A DNA stretch of 64,000 bases, taken from positions 1 to 64,000 of the forward strand of contig JBGAGQ010000012.1 in NCBI GenBank assembly GCA_044226625.1, given 5' to 3'. This DNA comes from Thermoanaerobaculia bacterium. GTDB taxonomy: Bacteria; Acidobacteriota; Thermoanaerobaculia; Multivoradales; UBA5704. Shown in pieces: positions 20-37,600 of this stretch. How positions within the stretch are numbered: the first letter of the stretch is position 1; each line of letters opens with the position of its first letter. The position numbers and the translations under genes are program-made. The notes beneath the pieces are model-generated. The model made no database searches. It was not told the DNA's origin and was given only the letters and a program-made list of their open reading frames with translations.

Positions 20-109
20 TGGCGGTGAGGGTGGGATTCGAACCCACGGTAGAGTTTCCCCTACACACGCTTTCCAAGCGTGCTCCTTAAGCCACTCGGA
101 CACCTCACC
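20..109 (-). tRNA. tRNA-Ser (anticodon GGA)
   Basis: Reverse complement reads GGTGAGGTGTCCGAGTGGCTTAAGGAGCACGCTTGGAAAGCGTG...GGTTCGAATCCCACCCTCACCGCCA: acceptor stem, GGA anticodon, long variable arm, TTCGAAT T-loop, encoded CCA. Confidence 0.97.
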
Positions 110-723: not shown

Positions 724-836
724 GACGAAGGGTTCGGGTCCTGTGCATCGATCCTCACCGAACCTCGTCAGGCCCGGAAGGGAGCAGCGATAAGGTTGGG
801 CGACCGAGTGCCGCAGATCAACCGGAACCCTTCGTC
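724..836 (+). ncRNA. ffs: signal recognition particle small (4.5S) RNA
   Basis: Conserved GTCAGGCCCGGAAGGGAGCAGC domain-IV motif; terminal stem GACGAAGGGTTC/GAACCCTTCGTC; usual position upstream of dnaX. Confidence 0.92.
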
Positions 837-20737: not shown

Positions 20738-21415
20738 ATGACCTCCTCACCCCGAACCAACGCCTCCCGCGCGTTTCGCCTGCTGGTCTTCGACTGGGAC
20801 GGGACGCTGATGGATTCGATCGCGACGATCGTCGCCTGTACCCAGGCGGCGCTCGGCGACCTCGGCCTCGCGCCGCCCCCCGAGGAGAAGGTTCGCCGCG
20901 TGGTCGGCATGGGGCTCCGCGAAACCATCGAAGAGCTCTGGCCGGACTGCGACGAGGCAAGCCTCGAACGGATTCGCGACAGCTATCGGCGTCATTGGCA
21001 CGAGACGTTTCGCGACCGGCCGATCCTCTACCCGGGGGTCGAGGCGATGCTGCGAGGTCTCGCCGAAGCCGGATATCTCCTGGCGGTCGCGACCGGCAAG
21101 AGCCGCCGCGGACTCGACCACGCGCTCGCGCAAACCCGCCTCGAAGGGCTTTTCCATTTCACCCGCACGGTGGACGAGGCGCCTTCGAAGCCACACCCCA
21201 AAATGCTGCTCGACATTCTCGAGAACCTCGGGGCGCGCGCCGACGAAGCGCTGGTGATCGGCGACACGACCTACGATCTCGGCATGGCGATGAACGCGGG
21301 CGCGCGGGCCGTCGGCATCCTCTCCGGAACGCACACGCGCGAGGATCTCGAAGGGGCGGGCGCGGCGGTCTGCTTGGCGTCGGTCACGGACGTTCCGGCC
21401 TGGCTCGCCGGCTGA
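20738..21415 (+). CDS. HAD-IA phosphatase (phosphoglycolate phosphatase-like)
   Basis: FDWDGTL, VATGK, SKPHP, IGDTTYD. Confidence 0.9.
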   Translation: MTSSPRTNASRAFRLLVFDWDGTLMDSIATIVACTQAALGDLGLAPPPEEKVRRVVGMGLRETIEELWPDCDEASLERIRDSYRRHWHETFRDRPILYPGVEAMLRGLAEAGYLLAVATGKSRRGLDHALAQTRLEGLFHFTRTVDEAPSKPHPKMLLDILENLGARADEALVIGDTTYDLGMAMNAGARAVGILSGTHTREDLEGAGAAVCLASVTDVPAWLAG

Positions 21416-21431
21416 AGATCGCGCGCTCCCC

Positions 21432-21463
21432 AAAAAACGACGAGCCCGCTTTCGCGGGCTCGC
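21432..21463 (-). terminator. intrinsic terminator downstream of the DUF2911 gene
   Basis: Minus strand reads GCGAGCCCGC-GAAA-GCGGGCTCGT followed by CGTTTTTT. Confidence 0.75.
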
Positions 21464-21493
21464 GGGTTCCAAATCGAGACAACGGCGCCGGGT

Positions 21494-22342
21494 CTACTTC
21501 TTCGCCTTCCACTCGGCGACGGACTTCTCGAGCGCCGCCACCTGGTCCGCGGCGGGCGGCTGGGCCGCCGTCTTCGCCGCCGCGAGAGCGCGTTCGCCAG
21601 CGGCCACCGCTTCCTTCACCCGTCCCTGCTTGGCGTAGAGGTTCGCCTCCGCCCGCAGGTTGTTGAAGTTGGCGTCGAGGGCGATCGAGGCGTCCAGCCA
21701 CTTCTCGGCCTTGTCCGCGCAGCCGTTGTCGACGCACCAGGCGGCTCCCTGGTAGAGAGTCTGCCAGCGCTGCTTGGCGGCGACCTGGGCCGCCGTGTCG
21801 ACCTCGATCTTGAACGGCACCGAGAGCTTTTCCCAGATCAGCTTGACCGTCGCCGAGTTGTCGGTGAGGTCGTCGAAATAGAACTCCATCCGCTCCTTGA
21901 CGTGCTGGTTCGGGACCGGAGTCACGGTCACGCGCAACGCGTCGTGCTCGGGCTTGTAGTTATAGGCGCCCCACTCGTCCGCGTCCTTGGAGAGGATCAG
22001 CGTCCACTCCTTCTCGGTCGGGATCGTCTGCAGGCCGTACGTCCCCGCCGGGACCTCCTTGCCCTCCACCTTGACCGCCGTCGAGAAGGTGATCGTCGTG
22101 TTCTCGTTCGCGCCGGTGCGCCAGACCTCGCCGAAGGGAACGAGCTCGCCCCAGATCTTCCGTCCCTTGACTCCCGGCCGGCTGTAGCGGATCGAAACGT
22201 CGGTCAAGCCGATCGTCTGCGAAACCATGGCGCCCGGCGAAGGCCGCGGGGCGGAGAGCTGCGAGGTCTGCGCGCTCGCGGCCGAGGCGGCGAGGGCCGT
22301 CCCCGCAAGCAGGGAAAGGGCCAAGCGGTGCGTACGTTTCAT
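21494..22342 (-). CDS. secreted DUF2911-domain protein with TPR-like C-terminus
   Basis: Signal peptide; YSRPGVKGRKIWGELVPFGEVWRTGANE motif. Confidence 0.88.
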   Translation of the reverse strand: MKRTHRLALSLLAGTALAASAASAQTSQLSAPRPSPGAMVSQTIGLTDVSIRYSRPGVKGRKIWGELVPFGEVWRTGANENTTITFSTAVKVEGKEVPAGTYGLQTIPTEKEWTLILSKDADEWGAYNYKPEHDALRVTVTPVPNQHVKERMEFYFDDLTDNSATVKLIWEKLSVPFKIEVDTAAQVAAKQRWQTLYQGAAWCVDNGCADKAEKWLDASIALDANFNNLRAEANLYAKQGRVKEAVAAGERALAAAKTAAQPPAADQVAALEKSVAEWKAKK

Positions 22343-22468
22343 CGGTCGTCCTCCTAAAAAAGGGCTAGAAATCCCGCGAAAGGCCGGGCCTCCCGCGACC
22401 AGCAGGCCGGGCGCGAAAGCTTATCGCACGAATCCCACGGGACGACCCCTCCCCCGCTCGCGACCGCC

Positions 22469-23659
22469 TCAGCCGATGCGACCGAACACCTCTCCCACCT
22501 GTTCCCAGCCGACCCGCATCAGAAAGCTGGTGTTGCGCCCGTACGACTTGATCCCCAGGATGTAGAAGTTTGGTTCCGGGTTCGCGAGCGTATCGGCGCC
22601 ATGGCTCGTCTGGGTCAGGCAATCGCCGCCGCCGCTCGCGCCCAGGAGCGCGGCGGATAACTTCATGGGAGCCGAGAAGGCATAGCACTCGTGGATCTGC
22701 AGCTCCCGGTAGAGCCGGTCGTCTGGAACGTAGCCGGTGAGCGAGAGCACGCGGTCGACCGAGACCGTCTCCACTCCGGCCGCCGACCGGAGGCCGACCT
22801 CGATCTTCCCGCTCGACCTTCGCAGCGATTCGACCACGACGCCTTTTTTGACCTCGACCGCGGGCGAGCCGCCCGCGGCGATCGCCGCGGCGTCCGCGAC
22901 CAGCCGACCGCGCTCGGGGAGCGGATCGGCTGACGCTTCGACGCAGGAGCCCTCCTCCCCGCGCAGCGCCCAGACGGTTCGGGTGCCTGGAGCGCGTTCG
23001 GCGAGCCGCGCGAGCGATCGCGCCGCGGTCCGCGCCGAATGCCCGCCGCCCACGAGCAGCACCGTCCGCCCCGCCCAGCCTTCCTCCCTCTCGAAATCCG
23101 GCAGCCGCCGGGAGACGGCCCCGTCGAGCGCGCGCTCGCCCGGCGCGGGGATGCCGCCGTCGCCGAGAAGGTTCGGGTTCGAGTAGGTCCCCGTGCAGTC
23201 GAGCACCACCGAGGCGTGCTCGATCCGCTCCTCGCCGTCGCGGTCGGCGATCAGCAGACGAAACGGCCTCGCCGCGCGCGCGGGCGAGGAAATCTCCTCG
23301 TGCTTGAGCAGCCCCTCCCGCCCGACCGCGACGACTCGGGACGAGAGCCGGATGTGCGGAGCGACGGCAGGCAGCGCGGCGAGCGGCTCGAGCAGACGGT
23401 CCACCAACTCGTCGCCGGTGGGGCAGCTCTCGCCCTCGGGAACTTCGACGCCCGCCGCTACGAGCGCGGCGCGCATCCGCGGCGAGACGTTCATCGACCA
23501 CGGGGTGAAGAGGCCGACGTGGCCCCAGGCGCGGACGTGGCCGGCGATTCGAGGCGCGGCCTCGTACAGCGTGAAGTCGAGGCCGCGCTCCGCCGCGGCA
23601 AGGGCGGCCTCCAGGCCGGTCGGTCCGGAGCCGAGGATCGCGAGGTGGGTGTTCGTCAT
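22469..23659 (-). CDS. FAD/NAD(P)-dependent flavoprotein monooxygenase, ArsO/ArsV-like
   Basis: GSGPTG FAD fold, LFTPWSMN, GGGHSA, ELQIHECY, GIKSYGR motifs. Start MTNTH at 23659 after an AAGGAGG RBS. Confidence 0.75.
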   Translation of the reverse strand: MTNTHLAILGSGPTGLEAALAAAERGLDFTLYEAAPRIAGHVRAWGHVGLFTPWSMNVSPRMRAALVAAGVEVPEGESCPTGDELVDRLLEPLAALPAVAPHIRLSSRVVAVGREGLLKHEEISSPARAARPFRLLIADRDGEERIEHASVVLDCTGTYSNPNLLGDGGIPAPGERALDGAVSRRLPDFEREEGWAGRTVLLVGGGHSARTAARSLARLAERAPGTRTVWALRGEEGSCVEASADPLPERGRLVADAAAIAAGGSPAVEVKKGVVVESLRRSSGKIEVGLRSAAGVETVSVDRVLSLTGYVPDDRLYRELQIHECYAFSAPMKLSAALLGASGGGDCLTQTSHGADTLANPEPNFYILGIKSYGRNTSFLMRVGWEQVGEVFGRIG

Positions 23660-23690
23660 GCTTCCTCCTTCAGGGATCGAAACCTTCGAT

Positions 23691-24578
23691 TCATGCGCGC
23701 TCGCTCTCCAGGAAGCGGGCGAGCTCGACGCTTTGCGGATTCGCGAGCCGCTCGCGGCAGGCGCCGCATTCGACCAGCTCGCCCGCGGGGCCACCCGGGC
23801 CGTCGCGCCGGTCGAGGCAGGCGATCTCGTCCGCCGTCCGCCGCGCCTGACCGAGCGAATGGGTGACCAGGACGATCGCCCGGCTCTTCGCCAGCTCGCG
23901 GATCCGCTCTTCGATCGCCTCGGTCGAACGCGGGTCGAGCGCGCTCGTCGGCTCGTCCAAGAGGAGGACTCGCGGGTCGACTGCGAGCGCACGAGCGAGA
24001 CAGAGCCGCTGCTGCTGGCCGACCGAAAGCTGGGCGGCGGGATCCTTCAGGCGGTCCTTCACCTCGGCCCACAAGGCGGCCTCGACCAGGGCGCGCTCCA
24101 GCCGCTCGGGCAGGTGCCGTCGCGGTACGAGCCCGGCGTGGCGCAGGCCAAAGAGCACGTTCTCCGCGACAGTGCCGGGAAAGAGGACCGGACGCTGGAA
24201 GAGCATGCCGACCTGTCGGCGTACGGCGTCCACCGGCTGGCGCCGAATCGAGCCGCCGAACAGAAGGACCTCGCCTTCCATGCGCAGCCCCGGCGAAAGC
24301 TCGACCATCCGATTCAGGCAGGAGAGCAACGTCGTCTTGCCCGCGCCCGAGGAGCCGATCAACGCGAGGACCCGCCGGTCCGGAAGGCGGAGGTCGACGC
24401 CGCGCAAGAGCGGGCGCTCGCCCTGGAAGACGCCCAGGCCGCGGGCCTCGAGGGCCGGCGCCTCGAAGGCTTCGACGACCGGCGACCGGAGCGCGTCGAC
24501 GATCTTTCCGTCCGCCGCGCAGTCCACCGCCGGGCAGCAGCCGTCGGTCGGCTCGACCGCGTACAGGGCTTCAGCCAT
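23691..24578 (-). CDS. pstB: phosphate-type ABC transporter ATPase (PstB-like) with Cys-rich N-terminal extension
   Basis: GSSGAGKTT, CLNRM, LSVGQQQRLCLARAL, LLDEPTSALDP. Confidence 0.85.
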   Translation of the reverse strand: MAEALYAVEPTDGCCPAVDCAADGKIVDALRSPVVEAFEAPALEARGLGVFQGERPLLRGVDLRLPDRRVLALIGSSGAGKTTLLSCLNRMVELSPGLRMEGEVLLFGGSIRRQPVDAVRRQVGMLFQRPVLFPGTVAENVLFGLRHAGLVPRRHLPERLERALVEAALWAEVKDRLKDPAAQLSVGQQQRLCLARALAVDPRVLLLDEPTSALDPRSTEAIEERIRELAKSRAIVLVTHSLGQARRTADEIACLDRRDGPGGPAGELVECGACRERLANPQSVELARFLESERA

Positions 24579-25422
24579 GGCGTGCCTCCTCATGGGCGCG
24601 CAGCCGGATCGGCAGGGCGACGAGGCTCGCGCCGGCGACCAAGCCGAGCAGCGCGAGCGCGGCGCCCCAGAGATGCCTCTCGCCGGCCGGCGAAAAGGAA
24701 TCCTGCGCGAGGACGAAGATGTGGTACGGCAGGGCGAGCACCGGGCTCTCCCGGATGCCTCGCGGGATCTCGGCGCCGGAAAAGACCGCGGCGGCGAAAA
24801 GAATCGGCGCGGTCTCACCCGCCGCGCGCGCGAGTCCGAGCAGCGCCCCCGAGATCAAACCGCCCAGGCTCTGCCGCAGAATGACCGAGCGGGCGACCTG
24901 GGCTCTGGTGAGACCGAGCCCGTAAGCCGCCTCGACGTAGGTTCGCGGCAACGCTTCGATGCGCTCGATGAGCGCGATCGTCTCGGCCGGGAGGATCATC
25001 AGGCCGAGGAGCAAACCGCCGCCGAGCCACGATTTGCCCCAACCGAGCCCGTGGACGAAGACGACGAATCCGCCGATGCCGAGCAAGACCGAGGGGATGG
25101 CGTTCGCCGCGTAAAGCGCCGAGAGCGCGCCGCGCCGCAGGCCCGGGCGGGGGAGATACACGGTGGCGGCAAGCGCCAGCCCGACCGCGAACGGCAGGCT
25201 CGCGGCGAGCGCGGTCGCGATCAGGATCGCGGTGCCCGCGAGCTCGTAGAGCACCCCGCCCTCGGCGCCCGAACCGGACGAAGGCCGGACGTAGAAAGAG
25301 GGATCGAAGGCCGAACCGCCTCGGCCGACGATCTCTCCGAGCGCGATCGCGAGGACGCCGAGCACCGCGAATGCCGCGAGCGCGCACCCCCCGATCAGGG
25401 CCCGGCTCACCCATTTACGCAT
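24571..25422 (-). CDS. pstA: phosphate-type ABC permease PstA-like
   Basis: IPSVLLG, EAAYGLG EAA loop, ARAAGETAPIL. Confidence 0.85.
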   Translation of the reverse strand: MRKWVSRALIGGCALAAFAVLGVLAIALGEIVGRGGSAFDPSFYVRPSSGSGAEGGVLYELAGTAILIATALAASLPFAVGLALAATVYLPRPGLRRGALSALYAANAIPSVLLGIGGFVVFVHGLGWGKSWLGGGLLLGLMILPAETIALIERIEALPRTYVEAAYGLGLTRAQVARSVILRQSLGGLISGALLGLARAAGETAPILFAAAVFSGAEIPRGIRESPVLALPYHIFVLAQDSFSPAGERHLWGAALALLGLVAGASLVALPIRLRAHEEARHG

Positions 25423-26335
25423 TCGGCACCTTGCGCAGCGCGAGCCACGAGCCGGCGAACGAGAGGAGGCCCACCACCGCGAGCAGGAGCAGGCCGAGGG
25501 CGAGAAGCGCCCCCCAATGCACGGGGTCACCGTACGCGAGAAAGGTCTCCGAGCCGCCGAGCTTCGTGGTCACCGTTTGGCCCGCTCCGGCGAGCGGCTC
25601 GATCGAGAGCAGCCGTTCCGGCCAGACGTTGTCCCGGCGGCCGATCACCAAGAAGACGGCGATCGTCTCGCCGAGCGCGCGGCCGAGGCCCAGCAGGAGC
25701 GCGGAGGCGAGGCCGGGCAGCGCCGCCGGAATCACGGCGCGCACGATCGTCTCGGCTCGGCCGAGACCGAGTGCCCGCGCGGCGATCCGCCGGCTGCGCG
25801 GCACCGCGGCGAGCGCGTCGTCGCCCAACGAGACGACCGTCGGCAGGATCATCACCGCGAGGAGCAGTCCGCCGGTCGCGAGCGTGTCGCCGGAGATCGG
25901 ATCGAACGGGCGCAGCAGCCGGAAGACGACGTCGCGCAGGAGCAGGACGCCGAGCAGGCCGTAGACGACGGACGGAATCCCCGCGAGCAGCTCGACTCCG
26001 ACCTTCGCCGCGATCCGGATCGGTCGCGGCAGGAGCTCGGAAAGGAAAACCGCTGCGCCGAGACCGATCGGCGCCGCGAGCGCCAGCGCGACCGCCGACA
26101 CGGCGAGGCTGCCGTAGATCATGGGCAGCGCGCCGAAGCTCGCGGAACGAAACGACCAGCGGACCCCGAGCAGTCCGGCGAACCCGGCCGATCGGACGAA
26201 CGGCCACGCCTCGATCGCGAACACGACGACCAGACCGAGGAACGCCGCTGCGGCCAGGGCGGACGAGCCGAACGCGGCGAGCCGGAGGAGGTCCGGCCGC
26301 CGCGGCCGAGGTCGCGACTCGGGTGTTTCCCTCAC
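25415..26335 (-). CDS. pstC: phosphate-type ABC permease PstC-like
   Basis: ELLAGIPSVVYG, GRALGETIAV. Confidence 0.88.
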   Translation of the reverse strand: MRETPESRPRPRRPDLLRLAAFGSSALAAAAFLGLVVVFAIEAWPFVRSAGFAGLLGVRWSFRSASFGALPMIYGSLAVSAVALALAAPIGLGAAVFLSELLPRPIRIAAKVGVELLAGIPSVVYGLLGVLLLRDVVFRLLRPFDPISGDTLATGGLLLAVMILPTVVSLGDDALAAVPRSRRIAARALGLGRAETIVRAVIPAALPGLASALLLGLGRALGETIAVFLVIGRRDNVWPERLLSIEPLAGAGQTVTTKLGGSETFLAYGDPVHWGALLALGLLLLAVVGLLSFAGSWLALRKVPNA

Positions 26336-27207
26336 TTCTTCCCTGGGCCGGCCGGTATCTTCAGATAGCCATGCTTCTCGACCAGCGTCTGACCTCGTGG
26401 GGAGAGCAGGAGGTCGATCATCGCCTTGGCCAGCCCCTTCGGCGGACCGTCGGTCACCAGTTGGAGCGGACGGGCGATCGGATAGCTACCGTCGGCGATC
26501 GCGGCGAGGGTCGGGGCGACGACCTTGCCGTCAAGACGCTTGACCGCCACGGCGAAAACGGTCTTCTGATCGGCCCAGGCGGCAGAGAGCTGCGAGATCG
26601 AGCCCGGCGTCGAGGCGACCTTGTTGCGCCCCTCTTCGTTCGCGCCGACCTCCGGATGGGAGACGTCGGGCGCCTTCTTCGGATCGCCGTAGAGCCACTT
26701 GGCGAACGCTTCCCAGGTTCCCCGGCCGGGCTCCTTGTTGAAGAAGACGATCCGTCGGTCCGGGCCACCGACCGTCTTCCAGTTGGCGATCGTCCCCTCG
26801 TAGATGCCCTGCACCTGCTGGCGCGAGAGAACCTTCACCCCGCCGTCCCAGACGTCCTTCGAGACGACCAGCGCGAGCGCGTCGATGCCGATCCGCGTCG
26901 CCTGGAATCGGACCTTCGGAAACTTCTTCGCGTCGTCCGGCTCGAGGTCGCGCGAGATCATGCCGATCTCGGCGCGCCCTTCGCCGAGCGCCGCGATGCC
27001 GCCCGAGCTTCCGCCTTGCGTGTCGACGAAGATGGTCGCCTTCTTTTCTCCGCGCAGGATCTCGGCGGCCTCGACCACCACCGGGTTCACGGTGGTCGAG
27101 CCGTTGATCCGGAGCGGCCCGTCGGCCGCCCGGGCCGTCGCGGCGAGGCACGGGGCGACCGCGAACGCGGCCGCGATCAGCAGCAGCCGGAACCGGGAGT
27201 GCAGCAT
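26332..27207 (-). CDS. pstS: phosphate-type ABC substrate-binding protein (PstS/PBP-like)
   Basis: Signal peptide, RINGSTTV, GGSSGG, YPIARPL. ATG 27207 with a GGAGG RBS inside the upstream gene. Confidence 0.85.
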   Translation of the reverse strand: MLHSRFRLLLIAAAFAVAPCLAATARAADGPLRINGSTTVNPVVVEAAEILRGEKKATIFVDTQGGSSGGIAALGEGRAEIGMISRDLEPDDAKKFPKVRFQATRIGIDALALVVSKDVWDGGVKVLSRQQVQGIYEGTIANWKTVGGPDRRIVFFNKEPGRGTWEAFAKWLYGDPKKAPDVSHPEVGANEEGRNKVASTPGSISQLSAAWADQKTVFAVAVKRLDGKVVAPTLAAIADGSYPIARPLQLVTDGPPKGLAKAMIDLLLSPRGQTLVEKHGYLKIPAGPGKK

Positions 27208-28334
27208 GCGGTGGCCTCCGTGGTGACCTGGTAGTCCTGGCCTTTGGTTTCCTTCGGATGCCTGCGCGCGGTGCGCGAGCAATCGAACGGCGCGGCCTCT
27301 TCGAGCGGCACCTCGACCCGCGGCTCGATGGTGTCGAACATGCCGGCGTAGGGCTCGCGCTGGTAGAGGCGATAGGTCTTGTCGCAGACGGCATAGCGCT
27401 CGCCGCGCCGCATGCGGTGGCCGTCGTCGTCCAATACTTCTTTCCACGGCCCCCGATAGACCACGGCCTGATTGCGCTCGAGGCACTCGCCCTGTTTGCC
27501 CTTCCACGCCTCTACGGTGAGCGAACGGAACTCGATCCCCTCGACCGTGCGCCAGGGCTCCGTCTGCCGCTCGAGGACGCGGATGCCGTAGAAGCCCGCC
27601 GCCTCGAACGCCTCGAGGAAGCCGGTCTCGGTGAGCGCGCCCGAGATGCAGCCGCTCCAGAGCTCGTGGTCGAGCTGCATCGAAAGGGGCACCTCCTCGT
27701 CGCACACGATGTCCGAGATCACGGCGCTCCCGCCGTTCTTCAAGACGCGGAAGATCTCGCGGAACAGACGCGGCTTCTCCTCGCCGTCGACCAGGTTCAA
27801 GACGCAGTTGGACACCACGACGTCGACCGAATCGTCGGCCACCAGCGGGTGCTCCCGGCGCAGCCGCTCGGCGCGGGTGGCCGCCTGGAGCAGGCCCTCG
27901 GTCGAGCGGACGGGATCCTTCGCGAGCTCGGCGTCGAAGCGGTCCATGTCGAGCGCGAGGTCCTGGATCCGGCCGCGCCGGAACTCGACGTTCGCGTACC
28001 CCAGTCGCTCGGCGACCACGGGCGCGTTGCGCCGTGCCACGTCGAGCATCTCGGTGGTCATGTCGACGCCGATCACCTTGCCCTCTTTCCCCACCACCTG
28101 GGCGGCGATGAAACAGATCTTGCCCGTGCCGCTGCCGAGGTCCAGCACGGTCTCGCCCGGTTTGAGATGCCGGCTCGGATCGCCGCAGCCGTAGTCGCGC
28201 TCGATCACCTCGTCCGGGATGATCGCGAGATATTTCGGGTCGTATTCCACCGGACAGCAGAGATCGGAAACGCGCTCTTGGGCGCCTTGCCGGTATCGAT
28301 CCTTGACGACGTCGTCGACGACCAAGGTAGCCAT
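27177..28334 (-). CDS. arsM: arsenite methyltransferase-like (ArsM/AS3MT family) SAM-dependent methyltransferase
   Basis: Conserved As-binding Cys contexts YGCGDP, SNCVLNL and WSGCISGA; DLGSGTG SAM motif; N-terminal CC and C-terminal CCTPGSGCC; AGGAGG RBS before ATG 28334. Confidence 0.8.
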   Translation of the reverse strand: MATLVVDDVVKDRYRQGAQERVSDLCCPVEYDPKYLAIIPDEVIERDYGCGDPSRHLKPGETVLDLGSGTGKICFIAAQVVGKEGKVIGVDMTTEMLDVARRNAPVVAERLGYANVEFRRGRIQDLALDMDRFDAELAKDPVRSTEGLLQAATRAERLRREHPLVADDSVDVVVSNCVLNLVDGEEKPRLFREIFRVLKNGGSAVISDIVCDEEVPLSMQLDHELWSGCISGALTETGFLEAFEAAGFYGIRVLERQTEPWRTVEGIEFRSLTVEAWKGKQGECLERNQAVVYRGPWKEVLDDDGHRMRRGERYAVCDKTYRLYQREPYAGMFDTIEPRVEVPLEEAAPFDCSRTARRHPKETKGQDYQVTTEATACCTPGSGCC

Positions 28335-28368
28335 GCGGACCTCCTGCGCCGCCAAGGGCGCGGGCCAA

Positions 28369-28415
28369 AGAAAAATTGCCACCGAGCGGCCCCCTCGGAA
28401 GGGGGCTGCCCGCGG
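28369..28415 (-). terminator. terminator/attenuator-like hairpin between DUF2064 and arsM-like genes
   Basis: Minus strand CGGGCAGCCCCC-TTCCGA-GGGGGCCGCTCG followed by GTGGCAATTTTTCTTT. Confidence 0.45.
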
Positions 28416-28435
28416 AAGAACTCGGAACGGGTGGT

Positions 28436-29200
28436 TTAGAAGGGAAGCGGGGAGGGGGCGGGCGGCGCGCGCCCGACGCGCGGCGCGGCGAAGCCGCCGG
28501 CGATACGGCCGAGATCGAACGGCACCGTGGGCCGCAGGTCCGCGAGCGCGGACCGAAGGATTTTTACCAGCCGGGCGAGCGGGCGCGCGAGGCCCGCCCC
28601 GCGGCCGGCTTTCTGCCGCTTGAGCCAGCCCGACAGGTCGACCGCGCGGTCGAGATCGGCGAGTGGCGCGAGGCGGACCACCGCGCGCCCGGCCCGGGCG
28701 AGCGAACGCTCGAGATCGCGGAGCGTCTCGTGCCGGCACCACCGCGCGGCGTCGGCGAGCCCGGCGATCGGCCGCGCCATCGCGATCAGGTAGAGGCCGC
28801 CGTCCGGAGAGGGGCCGAGGACGACCCGGTCGGGATCGTCCCTTAGGAGCTCGATCGCCCGCGCGACATGCGAGGCCGAGAGGCCGGGGACGTCGGCCGC
28901 GGCGACCACGAGGATCTCCGGACCGCGGGCGAACGCCCCGGCCACCGCGTGCTCCAGCCGCGCGCCGAACCGCTCGCCGCGCTGGGGCAGGACCTCGACG
29001 CCGGGTGCGTCGGCGAGCGGCTCCGGGCTCGCGATCGCGATCGCGCAGCCGGCCTCCCGACCCGCGGCGACGGCGCTGTCGAGCAGCTCGCGATGCGCCG
29101 CGTCCTCGAGATGACGGAGCCGACCCGGCAGCAAGCGACGCCGGGCGCTCTCCGCCGAGACGCCGCGGGAGAAGACGAGAAAGGTCGGTCGGCCGCGCAT
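28436..29200 (-). CDS. DUF2064 / TIGR04282-like glycosyltransferase-family protein
   Basis: QRGERFGARL, ADVPG, LGPSPDGGLYLI, LADLD motifs; C-terminal GRAPP. Confidence 0.78.
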   Translation of the reverse strand: MRGRPTFLVFSRGVSAESARRRLLPGRLRHLEDAAHRELLDSAVAAGREAGCAIAIASPEPLADAPGVEVLPQRGERFGARLEHAVAGAFARGPEILVVAAADVPGLSASHVARAIELLRDDPDRVVLGPSPDGGLYLIAMARPIAGLADAARWCRHETLRDLERSLARAGRAVVRLAPLADLDRAVDLSGWLKRQKAGRGAGLARPLARLVKILRSALADLRPTVPFDLGRIAGGFAAPRVGRAPPAPSPLPF

Positions 29201-29264
29201 CGTACTCTTCAGGTACGCGGGCGGAGGAGGATTCGGATGATCGGCGCGCACGGGTCGTCTCGGT

Positions 29265-30329
29265 TCAGTACCGGGAGACTGCCCGCTCGCGCGGCGGCAG
29301 GATTTCGAGACAGGTCGTCCACCAGCCGGTGGTGACGGTTTCGACGAACTCCTCGGGCAGCCGCTCGGCGCGCATCTCGGCGGCGAGCGCCAGGTGGTCG
29401 TAGCGGAGCGGCAGAAGCTGGACCGAGAGCCCCCCGGCATCCGGCTCCCCCGCCGATGCCGGCGCGCCTGCCGATTCGCCCGCCTCTTCGACCACCGCGT
29501 ACCAGACCCGGACGTCGCCGTCGTTGGCCGGCCGGCCGATCACCCCGACGTTGACCGCGTCGCGTCCGGAGGGCAGCCGCCGGTGCCAGTGGAGGCCCGT
29601 GTGCGTGCAGAGCAGGGCGTCGGCGCGCTCCTGGTCGAGCAGCACCTCGAGGAACGGCACCGGGCTGGTCGAGCGGAACAGGAACTCGTTGATCCGTCGC
29701 GGCGAGCCGTGGACCAGCAGCAGCTCTCGCCCGCCCACGCGAACCCGCCGCCGCCGGGGGAGTCGCCCCATCCAGGTCTTGAACTCGGCCGAGCAGCTCC
29801 TCTCCGTGTAGCGGTAAGAGACCTCGGCGAAGTGATTGTCGCGCGGGTCCGTATAGCCGCAGTTGCAGTCCTCGCGGCCGGAGGCGAGCGACTCCTCGTA
29901 GTTCCCCTGAATCGCCCGGACGCCGCCTGAGGTCAACAGGGGCCAGATCTTTTCCGGATTCGGGCCGAACCCGCCGAAGTCCCCCAAGCAATAGATGGCG
30001 TCGACCGCGTGGCGCGCCGCCTCCTCGAGCAGCGCGGCGAGCGCCAGGTGGTTGTTGTAGACCCCGCCGAAGACGAGGATGCGTCGGAACGGCCCCTCGA
30101 CCGGGGTGGGATCGGCGTCCGCGGCGAGGAAGCCGCGCACCGCCGCGTCACGCTCCCCGGCCGAGAGCGCCATCCCCGAGGCGGCCGTCGCAGCGCGAAA
30201 TCGGCCGAGCGGCACGAGCGACTCGCCCCAGGTGGCGAGCCCCCGGTGGGCGACCAGCCGTTCCCGATGCCGCGCGCGCACCGAGTCGTCGGTCGTTTCG
30301 CCGAGGCTCTGGGGGGGACGGTTCGCCAT
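29265..30329 (-). CDS. calcineurin-like metallophosphoesterase (divergent, Cys-containing)
   Basis: FGGVYNN, CLGDFGG, IQGNYE, DCNCGY, VHGSP, CTHTG. Confidence 0.8.
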   Translation of the reverse strand: MANRPPQSLGETTDDSVRARHRERLVAHRGLATWGESLVPLGRFRAATAASGMALSAGERDAAVRGFLAADADPTPVEGPFRRILVFGGVYNNHLALAALLEEAARHAVDAIYCLGDFGGFGPNPEKIWPLLTSGGVRAIQGNYEESLASGREDCNCGYTDPRDNHFAEVSYRYTERSCSAEFKTWMGRLPRRRRVRVGGRELLLVHGSPRRINEFLFRSTSPVPFLEVLLDQERADALLCTHTGLHWHRRLPSGRDAVNVGVIGRPANDGDVRVWYAVVEEAGESAGAPASAGEPDAGGLSVQLLPLRYDHLALAAEMRAERLPEEFVETVTTGWWTTCLEILPPRERAVSRY

Positions 30330-30354
30330 GCGCTCTCTTCCGTCGCCTCGCTCG

Positions 30355-31278
30355 TTACGTCTTGCAGCTCACGCCGTACGCGTGGCAGGTCCAGCAGGCC
30401 GGATGGTCGAGGGAAAACGGTTCGAGAGCGTCGGCGATCGACTCGCCCATCTTGCCGGAGGGCTCGTTGACCAGGATCGGGCAGACCCAGACCCCCTGGT
30501 CGGTCACCATCCGGCAGGCGCTGCACTGGAGGTGGTCCCAGCCCCCCTCCGGGGCGTCCCCCTCCCGCAGACGCTGCCACGCCTCATAGGCGCCGCCGCG
30601 CTCCGCCTCGGCGCCGATCTGGAAGACCGGCAGGATCTTGAGTCGCGGCTTGTCGATGCCGAGGCCCTTGAGCAGCTCGAAGAATCGCGATTTGCCCTGA
30701 TCGGTGCCCGACTCCCGATGGACCTCGGTCACCGTGATCACCGGATTGAGCCCCGCCGCGACCAGATTGCCCACCCCTTCGAGGATGCGGTCGAACGTGC
30801 CGGGGCCGCGGATCGGATCGTTCGAAGCGGCGTCGTAGCCGTCCAGCGAGACGCGCAGGTCGAGCGAGTAGTCCGAGGCGTCGGCGAGCGCCTTCAGGCG
30901 CTCCGCGCGCGCCGGGTCGAGCAGCAGCCCGTTGGTGAGGACGTTCGCCGGGCCGACGCGCAGCGTGGCGGCGAGGATCTCCTCCATCTCGGGGTTCAGA
31001 AACGGCTCGCCGCCGGTGAAGTAGTACTCCTTCACCCCGAGGCGCGCGCCCTCTTCGAGGTAGCCCTCGACGAGCGCGAGGCTCATGTGCTCGTGGGTGT
31101 GGTTGGTGGGAGAGCAGGAGATGAAGCAGTGGGTGCAGGCGATGTTGCAGACCGTACCCGCGACCTGGAACCAGAGGGTGTCGAGCGCCCGGAGAGCCAC
31201 CCGCGGTGCGTCGGCCGCCGGGATCGGGGGGGCGGCGACCGGCTCGAGACCCGCGCCCGAAAGCGCGTCGGCCGTCAT
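30355..31278 (-). CDS. radical SAM protein (ArsS-related) with C-terminal Cys cluster
   Basis: CNIACTHC (CxxxCxxC), FTGGEPF, VSLDG, IRGPGTF; C-terminal CSAC...C...CWTC...C. Start MTAD 31278 after GAGG. Confidence 0.88.
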   Translation of the reverse strand: MTADALSGAGLEPVAAPPIPAADAPRVALRALDTLWFQVAGTVCNIACTHCFISCSPTNHTHEHMSLALVEGYLEEGARLGVKEYYFTGGEPFLNPEMEEILAATLRVGPANVLTNGLLLDPARAERLKALADASDYSLDLRVSLDGYDAASNDPIRGPGTFDRILEGVGNLVAAGLNPVITVTEVHRESGTDQGKSRFFELLKGLGIDKPRLKILPVFQIGAEAERGGAYEAWQRLREGDAPEGGWDHLQCSACRMVTDQGVWVCPILVNEPSGKMGESIADALEPFSLDHPACWTCHAYGVSCKT

Positions 31279-31474
31279 GCGCGAACCTCGCTCCCGGAAT
31301 GCGACTTGAGCAGCGACCCGATCTGCGACAGAGCTCGTTCCATCCTTTCCACCTACGCATCCACCCGGCGGCTTGGATGACCGTTCAGCGTTCCAGCGGA
31401 CCCCAAGGGGCCGGAGCATACACGAACGCCCGCTGGCGGCCGCCGCCGCGGAGGTCGGCTATGATGCCTCGGCC

Positions 31475-32011
31475 TTGAGCCGATTCCTCGCCCTCTCGAT
31501 CGCGCTGCTCGTCCTGGTGATGGCGCTCTTCCAATTCGGCCTCGAGGCGCTCGGCTGGCTCCCCGTCGGCGCGCCGCCGCCGCCGCCCCCGAGGGTGCAG
31601 CTCGGCGCCTGGGGGCTCGAAGCGCTCGGCCTCGCGGCGCTCTTCCTGCTAATCCAGCGCGAAGGGGGCGTTTCCTGGTTCACCGGGTTGATGACCGGCT
31701 GGATCGCCTGGGTCTTCCGCGGTCCCCTCCTGGTCGTCTCGGTTGCCGCCGCGGGTCTCGATCCCAAGCCCTATTGGGGCATGTCGTTCCGGTGGTGGGT
31801 TCTCTACTCGACCTGCGGTTTGGTGCTCGGAATTCTGGCGCGCCCCGTGGAGCCGCGGCCCGAGCCTCCGGCGCCCCCACCACGCCTGGCGGCCCTCGAA
31901 CCGCCCACGGTGTCCACGCGGGCGCCCGAGCCGCCCTCGTCTCTCGAAGAGGCGGCGCCGCCGCCCGCCGACGAGCCGCCGGGCACCGCGGGCGTGGGGC
32001 CCGCCGCTTGA
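31475..32011 (+). CDS. hypothetical membrane protein with Pro-rich tail
   Basis: About four hydrophobic segments; TTG start 9 nt after TATGAT; stop overlaps the PKS start. Confidence 0.6.
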   Translation: MSRFLALSIALLVLVMALFQFGLEALGWLPVGAPPPPPPRVQLGAWGLEALGLAALFLLIQREGGVSWFTGLMTGWIAWVFRGPLLVVSVAAAGLDPKPYWGMSFRWWVLYSTCGLVLGILARPVEPRPEPPAPPPRLAALEPPTVSTRAPEPPSSLEEAAPPPADEPPGTAGVGPAA

Positions 32012-33069
32012 GAGTCGCCGCCGTCGGCTCCGCGCTGCCGCCGCACTTCTACGATCAGGCGACCTTGCTCGCGGCGCTCGAGAAGCGCTGGCAAGACCGC
32101 CTGTTCAACCTCGACCGGCTGAAGCGGCTGCACGAAAACGTCCTGGTCGGCGGCCGCTACCTGGCCCTACCGATCGACGAATACGACCGGCTCGAGACCT
32201 GGGGCCAGGCGAACAGCGCCTGGATCCGTGTCGCCCAAGAGGTAGGGGATCGGGCGATCCGCCGGGCGCTCGACCGCGCGGGGCTCGCCGCGACCGACGT
32301 TTCCGCCTTCTTCTTCACCACCGTCACGGGGGTCGCCACCCCGTCGATCGACGCGCGGTTGATCAACCGCCTGCGCATGTCGCCGCGGATCAAGCGCCTG
32401 CCGATCTTCGGCCTCGGCTGCCTCGCGGGCGCCGCCGGGATCGCCCGCGCGGCGGACTACGTGCGCGCCTATCCGGACCAGGTGGCGCTGCTGCTCTCGG
32501 TCGAGCTCTGCTCGCTCACGCTCCAAAGCGAGGACCTGTCGATCCCGAACCTGATCGCTTCGGGCTTGTTCGGCGACGGAGCGGCGGCCGTGCTGGTCGC
32601 CGGAAGCGAGCGGACCGACTTTCCGGCCACGGCCGGCCCTGAGATCGTCGCGACCCGCTCGATCTTCTATCCCGATTCCGAGCGCGTGATGGGGTGGGAC
32701 ATCTCGGAGACCGGCTTCAAGATCGTCCTCTCGGCCGACGTGCCGAAGGTGGTCGAAGAGCACATGAAGGAAGACGTTGACGCCTTCCTCGGCGACCACG
32801 GCCTCAGCCGGGCCGACATCGCGAGCTGGGTCTGCCATCCGGGAGGCCCGAAAGTGCTCGGGGCGATGCAGCAGACTCTCGAGCTTCCCGACGGCGCCCT
32901 CGACGTCACCTGGCGCAGCCTGCGCGAGGTGGGGAACCTCTCCTCGACCTCCGTCCTCCTGGTGCTCGAAGAGACGATGGCGAACCATCGCCCCGCCCCG
33001 GGATCCTGGGGCCTCCTCACCGCGATGGGCCCGGGGTTCTGTTCCGAGCTGGTGCTGCTGCGCTGGTGA
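32008..33069 (+). CDS. type III polyketide synthase (alkylresorcinol/alkylpyrone synthase-like)
   Basis: Catalytic triad contexts GLGCLAG, CHPGGPK and GNLSS; FGDGAAA; MGPGF. Confidence 0.92.
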   Translation: MRVAAVGSALPPHFYDQATLLAALEKRWQDRLFNLDRLKRLHENVLVGGRYLALPIDEYDRLETWGQANSAWIRVAQEVGDRAIRRALDRAGLAATDVSAFFFTTVTGVATPSIDARLINRLRMSPRIKRLPIFGLGCLAGAAGIARAADYVRAYPDQVALLLSVELCSLTLQSEDLSIPNLIASGLFGDGAAAVLVAGSERTDFPATAGPEIVATRSIFYPDSERVMGWDISETGFKIVLSADVPKVVEEHMKEDVDAFLGDHGLSRADIASWVCHPGGPKVLGAMQQTLELPDGALDVTWRSLREVGNLSSTSVLLVLEETMANHRPAPGSWGLLTAMGPGFCSELVLLRW

Positions 33070-34694: not shown

Positions 34695-37600
34695 TTAAGG
34701 CCGATCCCTGGGCGTAGCCAGGATCCTTTCGAGGATGGCGAGATCGAGCGGCTTGACCAGATGGTGGTCGATGCCGGCTTCTTCGGAGCGCCTACGATCG
34801 TCCCGCTGGCCCCAGCCGGTGAGGGCGATCACGCGGACCGCGTCGTTCGACGAGCGTTGGCGGATCCGGCGGGCGACCTCGTAGCCGTCCATGCCGGGCA
34901 GGCCGATGTCGAGCAGCACGACGCTCGGCGCGTAGGTTTCGAGCGCATCGAGCGCCTCCGCCCCGTCCCGGGCGGTGCGGACGTCGGCGCCGAGGAACCG
35001 GAGGAGCATGCCGAGGCTTTCGGCCGCGTCGTGGTTGTCGTCGACCACCAGGATGCGATGCTGGGCTACCGCGCTCGGCGGCAAGGCGGGCGGCGGATCG
35101 GACTGCAGCGATCCCGCCGGGCCCGCCGCGAGCGGCAGCCGCACCACGAACTCGCTTCCCTGCCCGAGGCCGTCGCTCTTCGCCTCGACCCGGCCGCCGT
35201 GCAAGTCGACCAGGCTGCGGACGAGGGTCAGGCCGATCCCTAGGCCTCCCTGGGATCGCCCGTAGCTGCGTTCCCCCTGGGCGAACAGGTCGAACACCGA
35301 AGGCAGCATGTCGCCGTCGATGCCCGTCCCGTCATCCCGGACCGACACCACGGCGAACGCGCCTTCGCGTTGCGCGGTGAGCCAGATCCGGCCCCCGTCC
35401 TCGGTGTATTTCGCGGCGTTGTTCAGCAGATTGGCCAGCACCTGGGCCAGCCGCACGGGGTCGGCTTCCAGGAGCATCGTCTCGGGCGCCAGGTCCAGGG
35501 TAAGCCGATGCCCGGAGGCGTCGATCAGCGGCCGGCTCGTCTCGACGGCGCTGCGGACGACGTCGGCGAGGTCGACCCGCTCCCTCTTGAGCTCGACCTT
35601 GCCGCGGGTGATCCGCGAGACTTCCATCAGGTCGTCCACCAGGCGGATCAGGTGGTCGACCTGCCGTTCCATGACGGCGTGGACCTGCTCGGCGACCTCG
35701 CCGTCGCCTCGCGCCAGGCGCAGCGTTTCGAGTCCGGTGCGGATCGGGGCGAGCGGGTTGCGCAGCTCGTGGGCCAGCGTCGCGAGGAACTCGTCCTTGC
35801 GCCGATCCGCCTCGCGCAAGCCGTCGGTGATCCGGGCTTCATGATCCCGGCGCAGCCGCGCCATCTCGAGGCGGGCGCCCACCCGTGCGAGCAGCTCGCG
35901 CGCGGAAAACGGCTTGACCAGGTAATCGTCGGCCCCCGCCTGCATCCCCTCCACATGCGCCTCCTCGCCGGCGCGGGCGGAGAGCAGGATCACCGGGAGC
36001 GTGCGCGTCCGTTCGTCGGACCGGAGCGCGCGCAGCAGTCCGAAGCCGTCCAAGCCCGGCATCATCACGTCCGCGAGGACGAGCTCGGGGAGCCGGCGCT
36101 CGACGGCGGCGAGCGCCGCCTCGCCGTCTGACACGACCTCCACGTCGTAGAGCGAGCCCAGCAGTCGACCGACATAGGCGCGCATGTCGGCGTTGTCGTC
36201 GGCCCAGACGATGCGCGGCCGCTCCGCGGATCCCGGCCGGGCGACGGTCGTCGGCGCGTCGACGATGCCCGCGGGCCACCGCTCGGGGATCTCGGTTTCG
36301 CGCGGCAGCCAGCTCAAGGTCTCTTCGAGGAAGGAGTCGGCCGCCGAGACCGAGGCCGCCGAGGCCCCGGAGACCACCGATCCGCCGCCGCTCGCGATCC
36401 GGTCCACCGGGAGGTGGGCGATCCCCTTGGGCAGCACGACCGAGAACGTGCTTCCTACGCCGACCGCGCTTCGAACCGAGACGCCACCGCCGTGCAGCCG
36501 AACCAGCTCGCGGACCATCGCCAAGCCGATCCCGGTTCCCTCGTGGGTGCGGGCCCGCACCCCCTCGATGCGATGGAAGCGGTCGAAGACGTGCGGCAGG
36601 TGGCTCTCGGCGATCCCCGTGCCCGTGTCGCGCACCGATAGCTCGACGCCGGCCCCGGCGTCCCGCAACCGGACCTCGATCTCCCCTTCGAGGGTGAACT
36701 TGAAGGCGTTGGAGACGAGGTTCAGCACGATCTTCTCGTACATGTCCCGGTCGACGTAGACCGGTTCGTCGAGAGGCGGGCAATCGACGATCAGGCGCAT
36801 CCCCGCCCTCTCCACGGCCGAGCGAAAGACGCTCGCGAGCTCCACCGTGAGCTCCGCCAGATCGGTCGGCACGTAGGTCGCCTGGATGCGGCCGGCCTCG
36901 ATGCGCGCAAAATCGAGCAGCGAGTTGACGAGCTTCTGCAGACGACGGACATTGCGGTGGAGCATCTCCACCCGTTCGCGCGGCCACACGGAATCGGCCT
37001 CGCCGAGCAGCGCGTCTTCGAGCGGGCCCAGGATCAGCGTCAACGGGGTGCGGAGCTCGTGGCTCACGTTCGAGAAAAAGACGGTCTTCGCCCGGTCGAT
37101 CTCGGCCAGCGCGTCGGCCCGCCGGCGCTCCGCCTCGTAGGCGCGAGCGTTGGCGATCGAGGTGGCGATCTGTCCCGCGAGCAGCTCATAGAAGCCGAGG
37201 TAGGGCTCGTCGAACTTCAGCCGGGCGCTCACGCCCGCGACCATGACCCCGGCCAGCCGGTGGGCGAGGTTCGACCGGATAGGCACCATCACGGCGTACT
37301 GCGGAGGGTCGGACCAGGGACCGGCGGGAACGTTGCCGCCGAAACGTCCGGCCAGGTCGCCGACGACGGACACCGCGGCCGTGCGTACCGCGTCGGCGAA
37401 CGGCCAGGGACCCTCCAAGGCGCCGAGCTCGACGCGCCCGGGGCAGCCCTCGGTCTCGGCCTCACAGCCGAAAAACCCGGCCAGCGCGGCCGCCTCGCCG
37501 TTCTCGTCGATCCGCTCGTCGATCAGATAGAGGAGGGCGAACGGGACGTCCTTGTCGTAGGCGGCCAGGGTCTCCGCGGCGATCCGGCACGCCTCCTCCG

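Follow-up and report, generated by a model that had tools for sequence, protein, structure and literature searches.

A radical SAM-ArsM gene cluster with a movable arsenic module and a variant Pst importer: a candidate organoarsenical locus in a Thermoanaerobaculia genome

The DNA analysed here (the window) is a stretch of 64,000 nucleotides from a Thermoanaerobaculia bacterium of the phylum Acidobacteriota (GenBank assembly GCA_044226625.1, contig JBGAGQ010000012.1, positions 1 to 64,000), and the subject of this report is a minus-strand run of nine genes at 22469-31278 that encodes an enzyme of the radical S-adenosylmethionine (SAM) type (rSAM), a metallophosphoesterase-like protein (MPE), a DUF2064 protein, a long form of the arsenic methyltransferase ArsM (ArsM-long), the four components of a Pst-type importer and a flavoprotein. 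An initial annotation, made from the sequence alone, had read these genes as an operon for organoarsenical biosynthesis with its own importer. The operon is a mosaic, in which an rSAM-MPE-flavoprotein core with a divergently transcribed type III polyketide synthase (PKS) is joined by an accessory DUF2064-ArsM-PstSCAB module. We tentatively put the locus forward, at somewhat less than even confidence, as a candidate organoarsenical cluster of a kind that would be new, with a lipid-linked core, a recruited arsenic module and possibly an arsenolipid as its product.

Organisation of the locus

The G+C content of the window is ~70%, and many spurious open reading frames (ORFs) appear as a result. 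The nine minus-strand ORFs have plausible starts and a G+C content at third codon positions (GC3) of 0.83-0.91 in every frame. Four junctions overlap (ArsM/PstS by 31 nt, PstS/PstC by 4 nt, PstC/PstA by 8 nt and PstA/PstB by 8 nt) and the other intergenic gaps measure 25, 64, 101 and 31 nt, so that the co-directional, mostly abutting or overlapping arrangement first described is real. The same nine genes occur in the same order in three relatives (L009, L010 and L013) and on a metagenome contig (L191), and a further relative (L012) has the order minus a DUF2064 match only; this recurrence and the GC3 values mark the set as more than a fortuitous series of ORFs.

Families were called from Pfam and NCBIfam profile scores against the curated cut-offs, and Rfam was applied at the gathering threshold. 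The Pfam matches bear out the families at the level of superfamilies, and the features are collected in Table 1. The initial annotation had remarked on the lack of phoU, arsR, arsC and an efflux pump in the operon, and none of these was matched among the nine genes in Pfam or NCBIfam. The cysteine content is 14 residues (3.6%) in ArsM, 10 (3.3%) in rSAM, 8 (2.7%) in PstB and 6 (1.7%) in MPE.

Table 1. Genes and other features of the locus, with window positions and best family matches.
Feature	Length (aa)	Position	Strand	Match
Radical SAM enzyme (rSAM)	307	30355-31278	-	Radical_SAM PF04055, 72.6 bits
Metallophosphoesterase-like protein (MPE)	354	29265-30329	-	Metallophos_2, 39.3 bits
DUF2064 / MobA-like nucleotidyltransferase-fold protein	254	28436-29200	-	PF09837, 66.1 bits
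Long-form ArsM	385	27177-28334	-	Methyltransf_31, 108.5 bits
PstS-like periplasmic binding protein	291	26332-27207	-	PBP_like_2, 123.4 bits
PstC-type permease	306	25415-26335	-	BPD_transp_1
PstA-type permease	283	24571-25422	-	BPD_transp_1
PstB-type ATPase	295	23691-24578	-	ABC_tran, 107.9 bits
Flavoprotein with two dinucleotide-binding domains	396	22469-23659	-	Pyr_redox_2, 45.4 bits
DUF2911 protein, tenth co-directional gene	282	21494-22342	-	
Terminator-like hairpin (10 pairs, then T run), 3' of the DUF2911 gene		21440-21463	-	Consensus match
Divergent membrane protein	212	31373-32011	+	No Pfam family
Divergent type III PKS		31774-33069	+	

A conserved core with a movable arsenic module

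Close homologues of the window rSAM number in the thousands; among the 120 matches listed, identity is 74-100% and the named ones belong to metagenome-assembled genomes (MAGs) of Thermoanaerobaculia. A genome scan with rSAM found 234 relatives, of which the best 80 supply the locus counts given here; these counts are tblastn matches, and some of the loci are cut by contig ends. MPE is matched in 77 of the 80 loci, the flavoprotein in 70 and the type III PKS in 67, and the flavoprotein is counted as part of the conserved core. ArsM is matched in 42 loci, DUF2911 in 42 (downstream), DUF2064 in 35 and the Pst genes in 19-21.

Of the 52 loci whose upstream sequence extends for 6.5 kb or more and whose downstream sequence extends for 8 kb or more (the full-flank loci), 25 hold the core only, 16 hold ArsM with Pst, nine hold ArsM without Pst, one holds DUF2064 only and one (L056) holds Pst without ArsM. 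The module lies mostly upstream of rSAM, separates MPE from the flavoprotein in the window clade and is split in a few loci, and in every full-flank locus that bears it, it is co-directional with the core. In an rSAM tree of 60 rows, a core-only locus (L014) nests within the window clade and two sister loci (L041 and L044) differ in the module; rSAMs with and without ArsM are ~80% identical. The gene set had been expected to be conserved together, and it does recur in relatives, but not as one fixed set, since DUF2064, ArsM and Pst are accessory. One full module (L060) was found on a MAG contig labelled Polyangiaceae (Myxococcota) with an rSAM that nests among those of Thermoanaerobaculia, which could reflect mis-binning or gene transfer.

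For a wider view, 301 Acidobacteriota genomes were searched with rSAM, ArsM and PstS. The rSAM search gave 56 genomes at E <= 1e-20, the unpublished genome G029 counted in, and 20 loci were taken from this sample as a distant set. MPE adjoins rSAM in 13 of the 14 distant loci whose rSAM is at least 40% identical to that of the window; the flavoprotein was found only in L094-L097, three of which belong to the same class, and ArsM in L094 alone. In 8 of the 20 distant loci the rSAM-MPE pair is directly preceded, on its upstream side, by a fusion of ~890 aa that joins an AMP-binding acyl-AMP ligase (FAAL), a carrier domain (ACP) and an acyltransferase. These loci (L099-L105 and L107; for example, L100 6740-9412) form a conserved three-gene fusion-rSAM-MPE unit in other acidobacterial families and contain no arsenic gene. 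With its AMP-binding, PP-binding and acyltransferase domains, the fusion recalls Aas and ElbD. In 44 of the 80 loci the PKS is followed further out by an AMP-binding enzyme, which is absent from the window locus and its nearest kin. The contexts of the core are accordingly those of fatty-acyl or polyketide metabolism; we propose that it produces or alters a metabolite of fatty-acyl or polyketide origin, and the context of the locus points to a lipid rather than a sugar product.

The radical SAM enzyme and its predicted partner

The window rSAM carries a canonical CX3CX2C motif (C44, C48 and C51), and these three residues together with five C-terminal cysteines (C252, C266, C295, C298 and C305) are invariant in an alignment of 24 homologues. 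It belongs to no named family, its best NCBIfam match being the uncharacterised Rv1681 family at 96.1 bits against a cut-off of 380. An AlphaFold model (predicted local distance difference test, pLDDT, 85.8) is closest in Foldseek to BlsE, SkfB, EpeE, SuiB and anSME, at template modelling (TM) scores of 0.52-0.63 and identities of 14-21%. Superfamily membership, the C-terminal cysteines and the model together make the protein a predicted member of the SPASM/twitch class; the cysteine pattern presumably resembles the start of a SPASM/twitch domain.

An assignment as ArsS was rejected at 50.1 bits against the 300 of TIGR04167, the match being confined to model positions 5-147 of 303, that is, to the N-terminal half. 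No protein of the source genome (G000; assembly 97.9% complete) exceeds the ArsS cut-off, and the window rSAM is its best ArsS-like match (49.9 bits). An assignment as ArsL was likewise rejected, as the protein has 307 aa, a CX3CX2C motif at 44-51 and the tail ACWTCHAYGVSCKT without the RCCLKC described for ArsL; no ArsL model is among the 25 NCBIfam matches listed for the operon. The suggestion that this is a non-canonical radical SAM enzyme therefore holds in that it is not ArsS, but its CX3CX2C motif is canonical and its C-terminal cysteines are SPASM/twitch-like. Searches of the PDB by sequence with rSAM, MPE and the flavoprotein returned distant superfamily matches only, and searches of the ESM Atlas with MPE and rSAM returned only unnamed acidobacterial clusters.

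MPE is folded like SapH, an Ap4A hydrolase (Foldseek TM 0.72/0.80). In the 18 aligned members, the Asp and His of motif I are lost without exception, being replaced by GG(V/I)Y (GGVY in the window protein), and Tyr stands for His in motif III (GNYE), in keeping with the initial annotation of a divergent metallophosphoesterase; motif II GD, HGSPR and THTG are retained. Invariant motifs specific to the family are a DCxCGYTDPRDN insert and a GWWTTCLE tail. MPE was accordingly rejected as an active calcineurin-like metallophosphoesterase, an enzyme that binds two metals through DxH, GD, GNH(D/E), H and GH(x)H: the fold is present, but DxH has become G-V/I-Y and GNH has become GNY.

A modelled complex of rSAM and MPE scored 0.89, against 0.08 for the best control, on a score for which 58 of 80 solved complexes, but only 2 of 110 mismatched pairs, attained the mark. 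At least 95% of the contacts agree between model runs, with a partner pLDDT of at least 91, and the modelled interface is formed by MPE residues 136, 143-154 and 266-279, which are family-invariant segments. MPE is thus probably a partner subunit of rSAM in a predicted complex, and such a radical SAM/pseudo-phosphoesterase complex would matter whatever its substrate, the pair being conserved across the phylum beside lipid enzymes.

ArsM and its recurrent pairing with radical SAM enzymes

The best NCBIfam match of the window methyltransferase is the arsinothricin-type family NF040538 (322.5 bits against a cut-off of 500, along 306 residues); it scores 207.7 bits against 263 for the generic PRK11873 and 122.3 bits against 400 for the arsenosugar ArsM model. 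Aligned to CmArsM, it retains YGCGD, SNCVLNL and WSGCISGA, and in an alignment of 37 family members the As(III)-binding cysteines (Cys26/27, 50, 177 and 229) never vary. Thirteen cysteine columns are invariant or nearly so in the same alignment, including those of a conserved C-terminal CC-x(3-5)-CC tail. On the strength of its SAM domain and cysteines, the protein is, as judged from the alignment, an ArsM-type As(III) SAM methyltransferase, in line with the initial call, and by profile score ArsM-long is a subfamily of its own, nearest to NF040538 and below the cut-offs of both NF040538 and PRK11873. In one relative (L119, G026:C9:111956-113101) an in-frame TGA stands at the next-to-last cysteine of the tail, which could be a truncation or selenocysteine; the in-frame TGA reported for another (L133) is a plain stop codon.

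A canonical ArsM (325.3 bits, over its cut-off) lies elsewhere in the source genome, behind a MarR-family gene on contig C48 (42700-44943; L187 6737-8472 and beyond), and the window ArsM is for this reason regarded as an extra, specialised copy. Beside the canonical gene is a convergent LMWP ArsC-like gene (100 bits, under its cut-off). Contig C48 ends at 45788, so that further ars genes may be cut off, and neither Acr3 nor a Grx-type ArsC was found in the 97.9%-complete assembly.

The phylum sample yielded ArsM matches in 30 of the 301 genomes, giving 30 ArsM-long loci. A radical SAM ORF lies within 1.5 kb of ArsM-long in 22 of these, three more (L114, L115 and L121, from the window, a genus-mate and G098) have one within ~4 kb, and the remaining five have no radical SAM ORF in the 1.5-kb flank. 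The six most distant rSAM loci define a second clade (clade B), 28-35% identical to the window rSAM and without MPE, which carries the same five-cysteine C-terminus; three of these six adjoin an ArsM-long with 58-72% identity, one of the three also with DUF2064. In another genome (G112), distant versions of rSAM, ArsM, PstS and PstC occur together. Of the evidence that ArsM-long may work with a radical SAM enzyme, as ArsM does with ArsS and with ArsL, this repeated pairing is the strongest piece.

A quite improbable alternative is that module and core share no metabolite, being independent units with a common, permissive insertion site and common transcription, and that the rSAM-ArsM adjacency seen elsewhere is unrelated. 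The patchy distribution of the module, the ~80% identity of rSAMs whether or not ArsM is present, and the low identity of the ArsM-adjacent clade-B enzymes to the window rSAM would all be expected under this view. It does not sit well with a module that takes several positions yet is always inside the operon and co-directional, with the joint recurrence of DUF2064, ArsM and rSAM in other lineages or with the invariant cysteine pattern that both rSAM clades share.

The DUF2064 protein of the operon meets its Pfam model (66.1 bits against 25.8), but the proposal that it is a TIGR04282-type transferase was rejected (81.9 bits against 134). A second DUF2064 gene of the genome (C6:64764-65360; L188 6660-7382, minus strand) scores 140.6 bits, over the TIGR04282 cut-off, and its back-to-back neighbour encodes a SAM hydroxide adenosyltransferase (SAM_HAT_N, 158.6 bits; L188 7448-8254, plus strand); the pair on C6 is another case of a SAM-cleaving enzyme adjoining a DUF2064.

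The Pst importer

PstC is over the cut-off of its phosphate family (TIGR02138, 212.8 bits against 196.45), while PstS (TIGR02136, 163.6 against 206.6), PstA (TIGR00974, 143.6 against 193.45) and PstB (TIGR00972, 253.5 against 343.2) are under theirs. The anion loop of the window PstS reads NKEPGRGTWE, and (N/D)KE(P/A)GRGTWE is present in all 21 aligned cluster PstS proteins. In an alignment along its length, the window NKEPGRGTW faces SREDGSGTR of the solved PstS 4gd5, and the housekeeping PstS of the source genome has GRNSASGTY; the loop R-x-x-x-S-G-T has thus become K-E-P-G-R-G-T. As this loop contains phosphate-contacting residues in Escherichia coli PstS, the change suggests a possible alteration of ligand recognition.

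PstS matches were found in 35 of the 301 genomes of the phylum sample, and the loop was read in the best 30 loci. Three genomes only (G000, G271 and G112) have a PstS that is >50% identical, and the same three account for the loop signature (3 of 30 loci), in each case beside ArsM; within the source genome it occurs once. A metagenome scan with PstS gave four loci, of which three repeat the window order and one is an ordinary Pst, too few for an independent test of the association. The idea that PstB carries a conserved arsenic site in its N-terminal CCP was dropped because this Cys-rich extension is retained only in the nearest kin.

The initial annotation had called for a check on a separate canonical system. 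A complete pstSCAB is present on contig C84 (PstS 274.6 bits, over cut-off) and phoU on C86, so the window Pst is a second system and cannot be the only one of the genome.

Arsenate enters cells via phosphate transporters, and its uptake rises under phosphate limitation. In the main rival reading the locus is a mosaic that answers phosphate stress: the variant Pst would be a second scavenger of phosphate with high affinity, ArsM would only detoxify co-imported arsenate, and both would share the promoter of a lipid-remodelling or lipid-modifying operon (rSAM-MPE-flavoprotein, PKS) that responds to the same stress, with no organoarsenical made on purpose; the locus would then show arsenic detoxification wired to phosphate scavenging. 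The best matches of PstS, PstA and PstB are phosphate families, as is that of PstC, which exceeds its cut-off; the module is often gained and lost among close kin, as resistance islands are; the core occurs without ArsM and, at L056, Pst does so too. We nevertheless hold this explanation to be unlikely, while taking it seriously, as it leaves unexplained the proximity of ArsM and a radical SAM ORF at 22 of 30 loci (clades without MPE, PKS and Pst included), the invariant PstS loop change that is seen only beside ArsM and the separate canonical ArsM with its ArsC-like neighbour, and as the operon has neither phoU nor a reductase.

The altered loop is unlike those of phosphate binders, and ArsM, PstS, PstA, PstB and DUF2064 are all under their family cut-offs, which would also fit the handling of another element or substrate, namely Sb, Se, Te or a reduced phosphorus species, or the methylation of a thiol or other group on a lipid. 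ArsM-type enzymes can methylate Sb(III) too. This reading is the least probable of those weighed here, given that the canonical As(III)-binding cysteines of ArsM are invariant and that its nearest named families are all arsenic methyltransferases.

The flavoprotein

The nearest relatives of the flavoprotein are weak matches, a YpdA/Bdr-type reductase resembling thioredoxin reductase (TrxR) at 44 bits and a type II flavin monooxygenase (FMO) at 34 bits. An ArsO/ArsV-like identity was given up, on an ArsO score of 17.6 bits against 425 and on the TrxR-like/type II FMO profile, with no model for ArsV among the NCBIfam models listed. No ArsH match is among the 25 NCBIfam matches listed for the operon.

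Flanking features and traces in metagenomes

The DUF2911 gene is probably the last gene of the transcription unit, which probably ends at the terminator-like hairpin that follows. Terminator-like and sigma-70-like sites were scored as consensus matches; the terminator-like sites number three, where shuffled sequence gives 4.5. One of them, a weak hairpin (5 pairs, then T run) in the gap between DUF2064 and ArsM (28378-28390, minus strand), is within chance expectation. No sigma-70-like promoter was found at 21000-32500, with a consensus that is uninformative for Acidobacteriota, and no riboswitch or other known RNA was found in the operon by Rfam; the Rfam matches of the window are a tRNA (23-109, minus strand) and a small signal recognition particle (SRP) RNA (732-830, plus strand).

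The divergent membrane protein is kept beside the PKS in 59 of the 80 loci. Since homology begins at about residue 72-79 of the PKS ORF, the true start of this gene is probably near 32000. A large hybrid histidine kinase with GAF, two HisKA/HATPase sets and receiver domains (34695-38159, minus strand) lies ~1.6 kb beyond the PKS.

The stretch is present as DNA contigs in two sequencing runs, X1 (0.89 of sampled words, probably from the source or a close relative) and X2. In a metatranscriptome library (X3), eight contigs, all short and each with 2-14 differences, fall on the DUF2911, PstS, ArsM and PKS genes and on the 5' end of rSAM.

Proposed pathway and its standing

Taken as a candidate organoarsenical cluster, the locus may be read in the following order, in which we infer the imported substrate, each chemical step and the product. 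The variant Pst would import an oxyanion, most likely arsenate; a host reductase would act on it, and the Cys-rich ArsM would hold and methylate the As(III). The rSAM/MPE pair might then form a further C-As bond or modify a carbon scaffold, much as ArsM/ArsS and ArsL/ArsM would suggest by analogy, and so yield an organoarsenical that is possibly an arsenolipid, while the flavoprotein could feed electrons to the rSAM cluster or oxidise a trivalent product.

A more specific version, which we consider rather unlikely, holds that a heterodimer of rSAM and the remodelled MPE forms the C-As bond on an acyl or polyketide scaffold, served by an arsenate-selective Pst and the Cys-tailed ArsM, and that cores without the module make a phosphorus or carbon analogue. 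If true, a bacterial arsenolipid pathway would for the first time be defined at the gene level, and one more enzymatic route to the C-As bond would be added. 

Several observations weigh against the organoarsenical interpretation. The core stands alone at 25 of the 52 full-flank loci, and in the rSAM tree core-only and ArsM-bearing loci are interleaved, with well-supported branches that force at least six changes. In the five core-only genomes checked, none has a close ArsM, with partial matches of 42-54% in four and none in one, and across the 20 distant loci no ArsM was found near an rSAM-MPE pair outside the class. The rSAM is neither ArsS nor ArsL, and its five C-terminal cysteines look like an ordinary auxiliary-cluster domain. 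DUF2064, ArsM, PstS, PstA and PstB all fall short of their curated family cut-offs; because PstC passes the phosphate PstC cut-off, plain phosphate transport is possible. An arsenate reductase, ArsR and an exporter are absent from the operon. The X3 contigs are a weak hint of expression, as the library may contain DNA and the contigs do not show level, strand or transcript structure; stretches without contigs carry no meaning.

The organoarsenical reading first given to this operon is thus supported in part: ArsM itself, the second Pst system, the divergence of the phosphoesterase, an rSAM other than canonical ArsS and the recurrence of the gene set stand, while a fixed nine-gene set, a TIGR04282 assignment and an ArsO/ArsV assignment do not. 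What sets the candidate apart among arsenic clusters that combine ArsM with a radical SAM enzyme is an rSAM clade that is new, a pseudo-phosphoesterase as its predicted partner and the variant importer. The openly readable literature searched yielded papers on ArsS, ArsL, bsn and the pst genes of arsenic islands, none of which describes these genes as a set, and no gene set for arsenolipids was found in it.

Comparison with known systems

Known bacterial routes to C-As bonds are few, those named, among others in a 2025 review, being ArsM, ArsS, ArsL and the bsn pathway (PMC12159101; 10.1101/2024.02.01.577332). The cyanobacterial arsenosugar genes (ArsM, ArsS and TIGR04282/TIGR04283) resemble the window in the triad of ArsM, a protein like DUF2064/TIGR04282 and an rSAM whose C-terminus is rich in Cys, and NCBIfam names tie TIGR04167 and TIGR04282 to arsenosugar synthesis. 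In contrast to that set, the window adds an MPE-like partner, a flavoprotein, Pst and a PKS neighbour, and its rSAM, DUF2064 and ArsM are each under the respective model cut-off.

The arsQML genes of Burkholderia gladioli likewise pair a radical SAM enzyme with ArsM, which there has 378 aa, compared with 385 aa in the window, and a similar cysteine layout. The ArsL of that system is described as 428 aa long, its CX3CX2C spanning residues 194-201 and its C-terminal RCCLKC tail binding As(III) (10.1101/2024.02.01.577332), unlike the shorter window rSAM with its N-terminal motif and different tail. The window also differs in lacking an ArsQ-type exporter and having an importer in its place, which, if arsenate-selective, would reverse the usual discrimination against arsenate. 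As an importer it resembles PstSCAB phosphate systems in its S-C-A-B gene order, in a PstC over cut-off and in a PstS that aligns over its full length, and departs from them in the lack of phoU, the altered PstS loop, the PstS, PstA and PstB scores under cut-off and its status as a second system.

MPE shares with SapH/YfcE-type metallophosphoesterases (PDB 3qfm and 3rqz) the fold, motif II GD, HGSPR and THTG, and differs in having GGVY where 3rqz has SDVH, Tyr for His in motif III, the DCxCGYTDPRDN and GWWTTCLE motifs and the predicted binding to rSAM. Unlike the SPASM/twitch enzymes BlsE, SkfB, EpeE and anSME, the window rSAM has no precursor-peptide or sugar-nucleoside context, and it has an MPE-like partner.

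The bisenarsan bsn genes of Streptomyces resemble the locus in placing arsenic genes in a PKS context, and in their product arsenic is joined to a polyketide or acyl part (PMC12159101). No SAM enzyme is described there as taking part in C-As bond formation by the bsn pathway, which relies on a mutase and a homologue of EPSP synthase, whereas the locus has ArsM and rSAM and neither of those two. Set beside these systems, the window locus and its relatives may represent a recurrent third ArsM-rSAM partnership, with neither ArsS nor ArsL, in Acidobacteriota that are abundant in soil and sediment.

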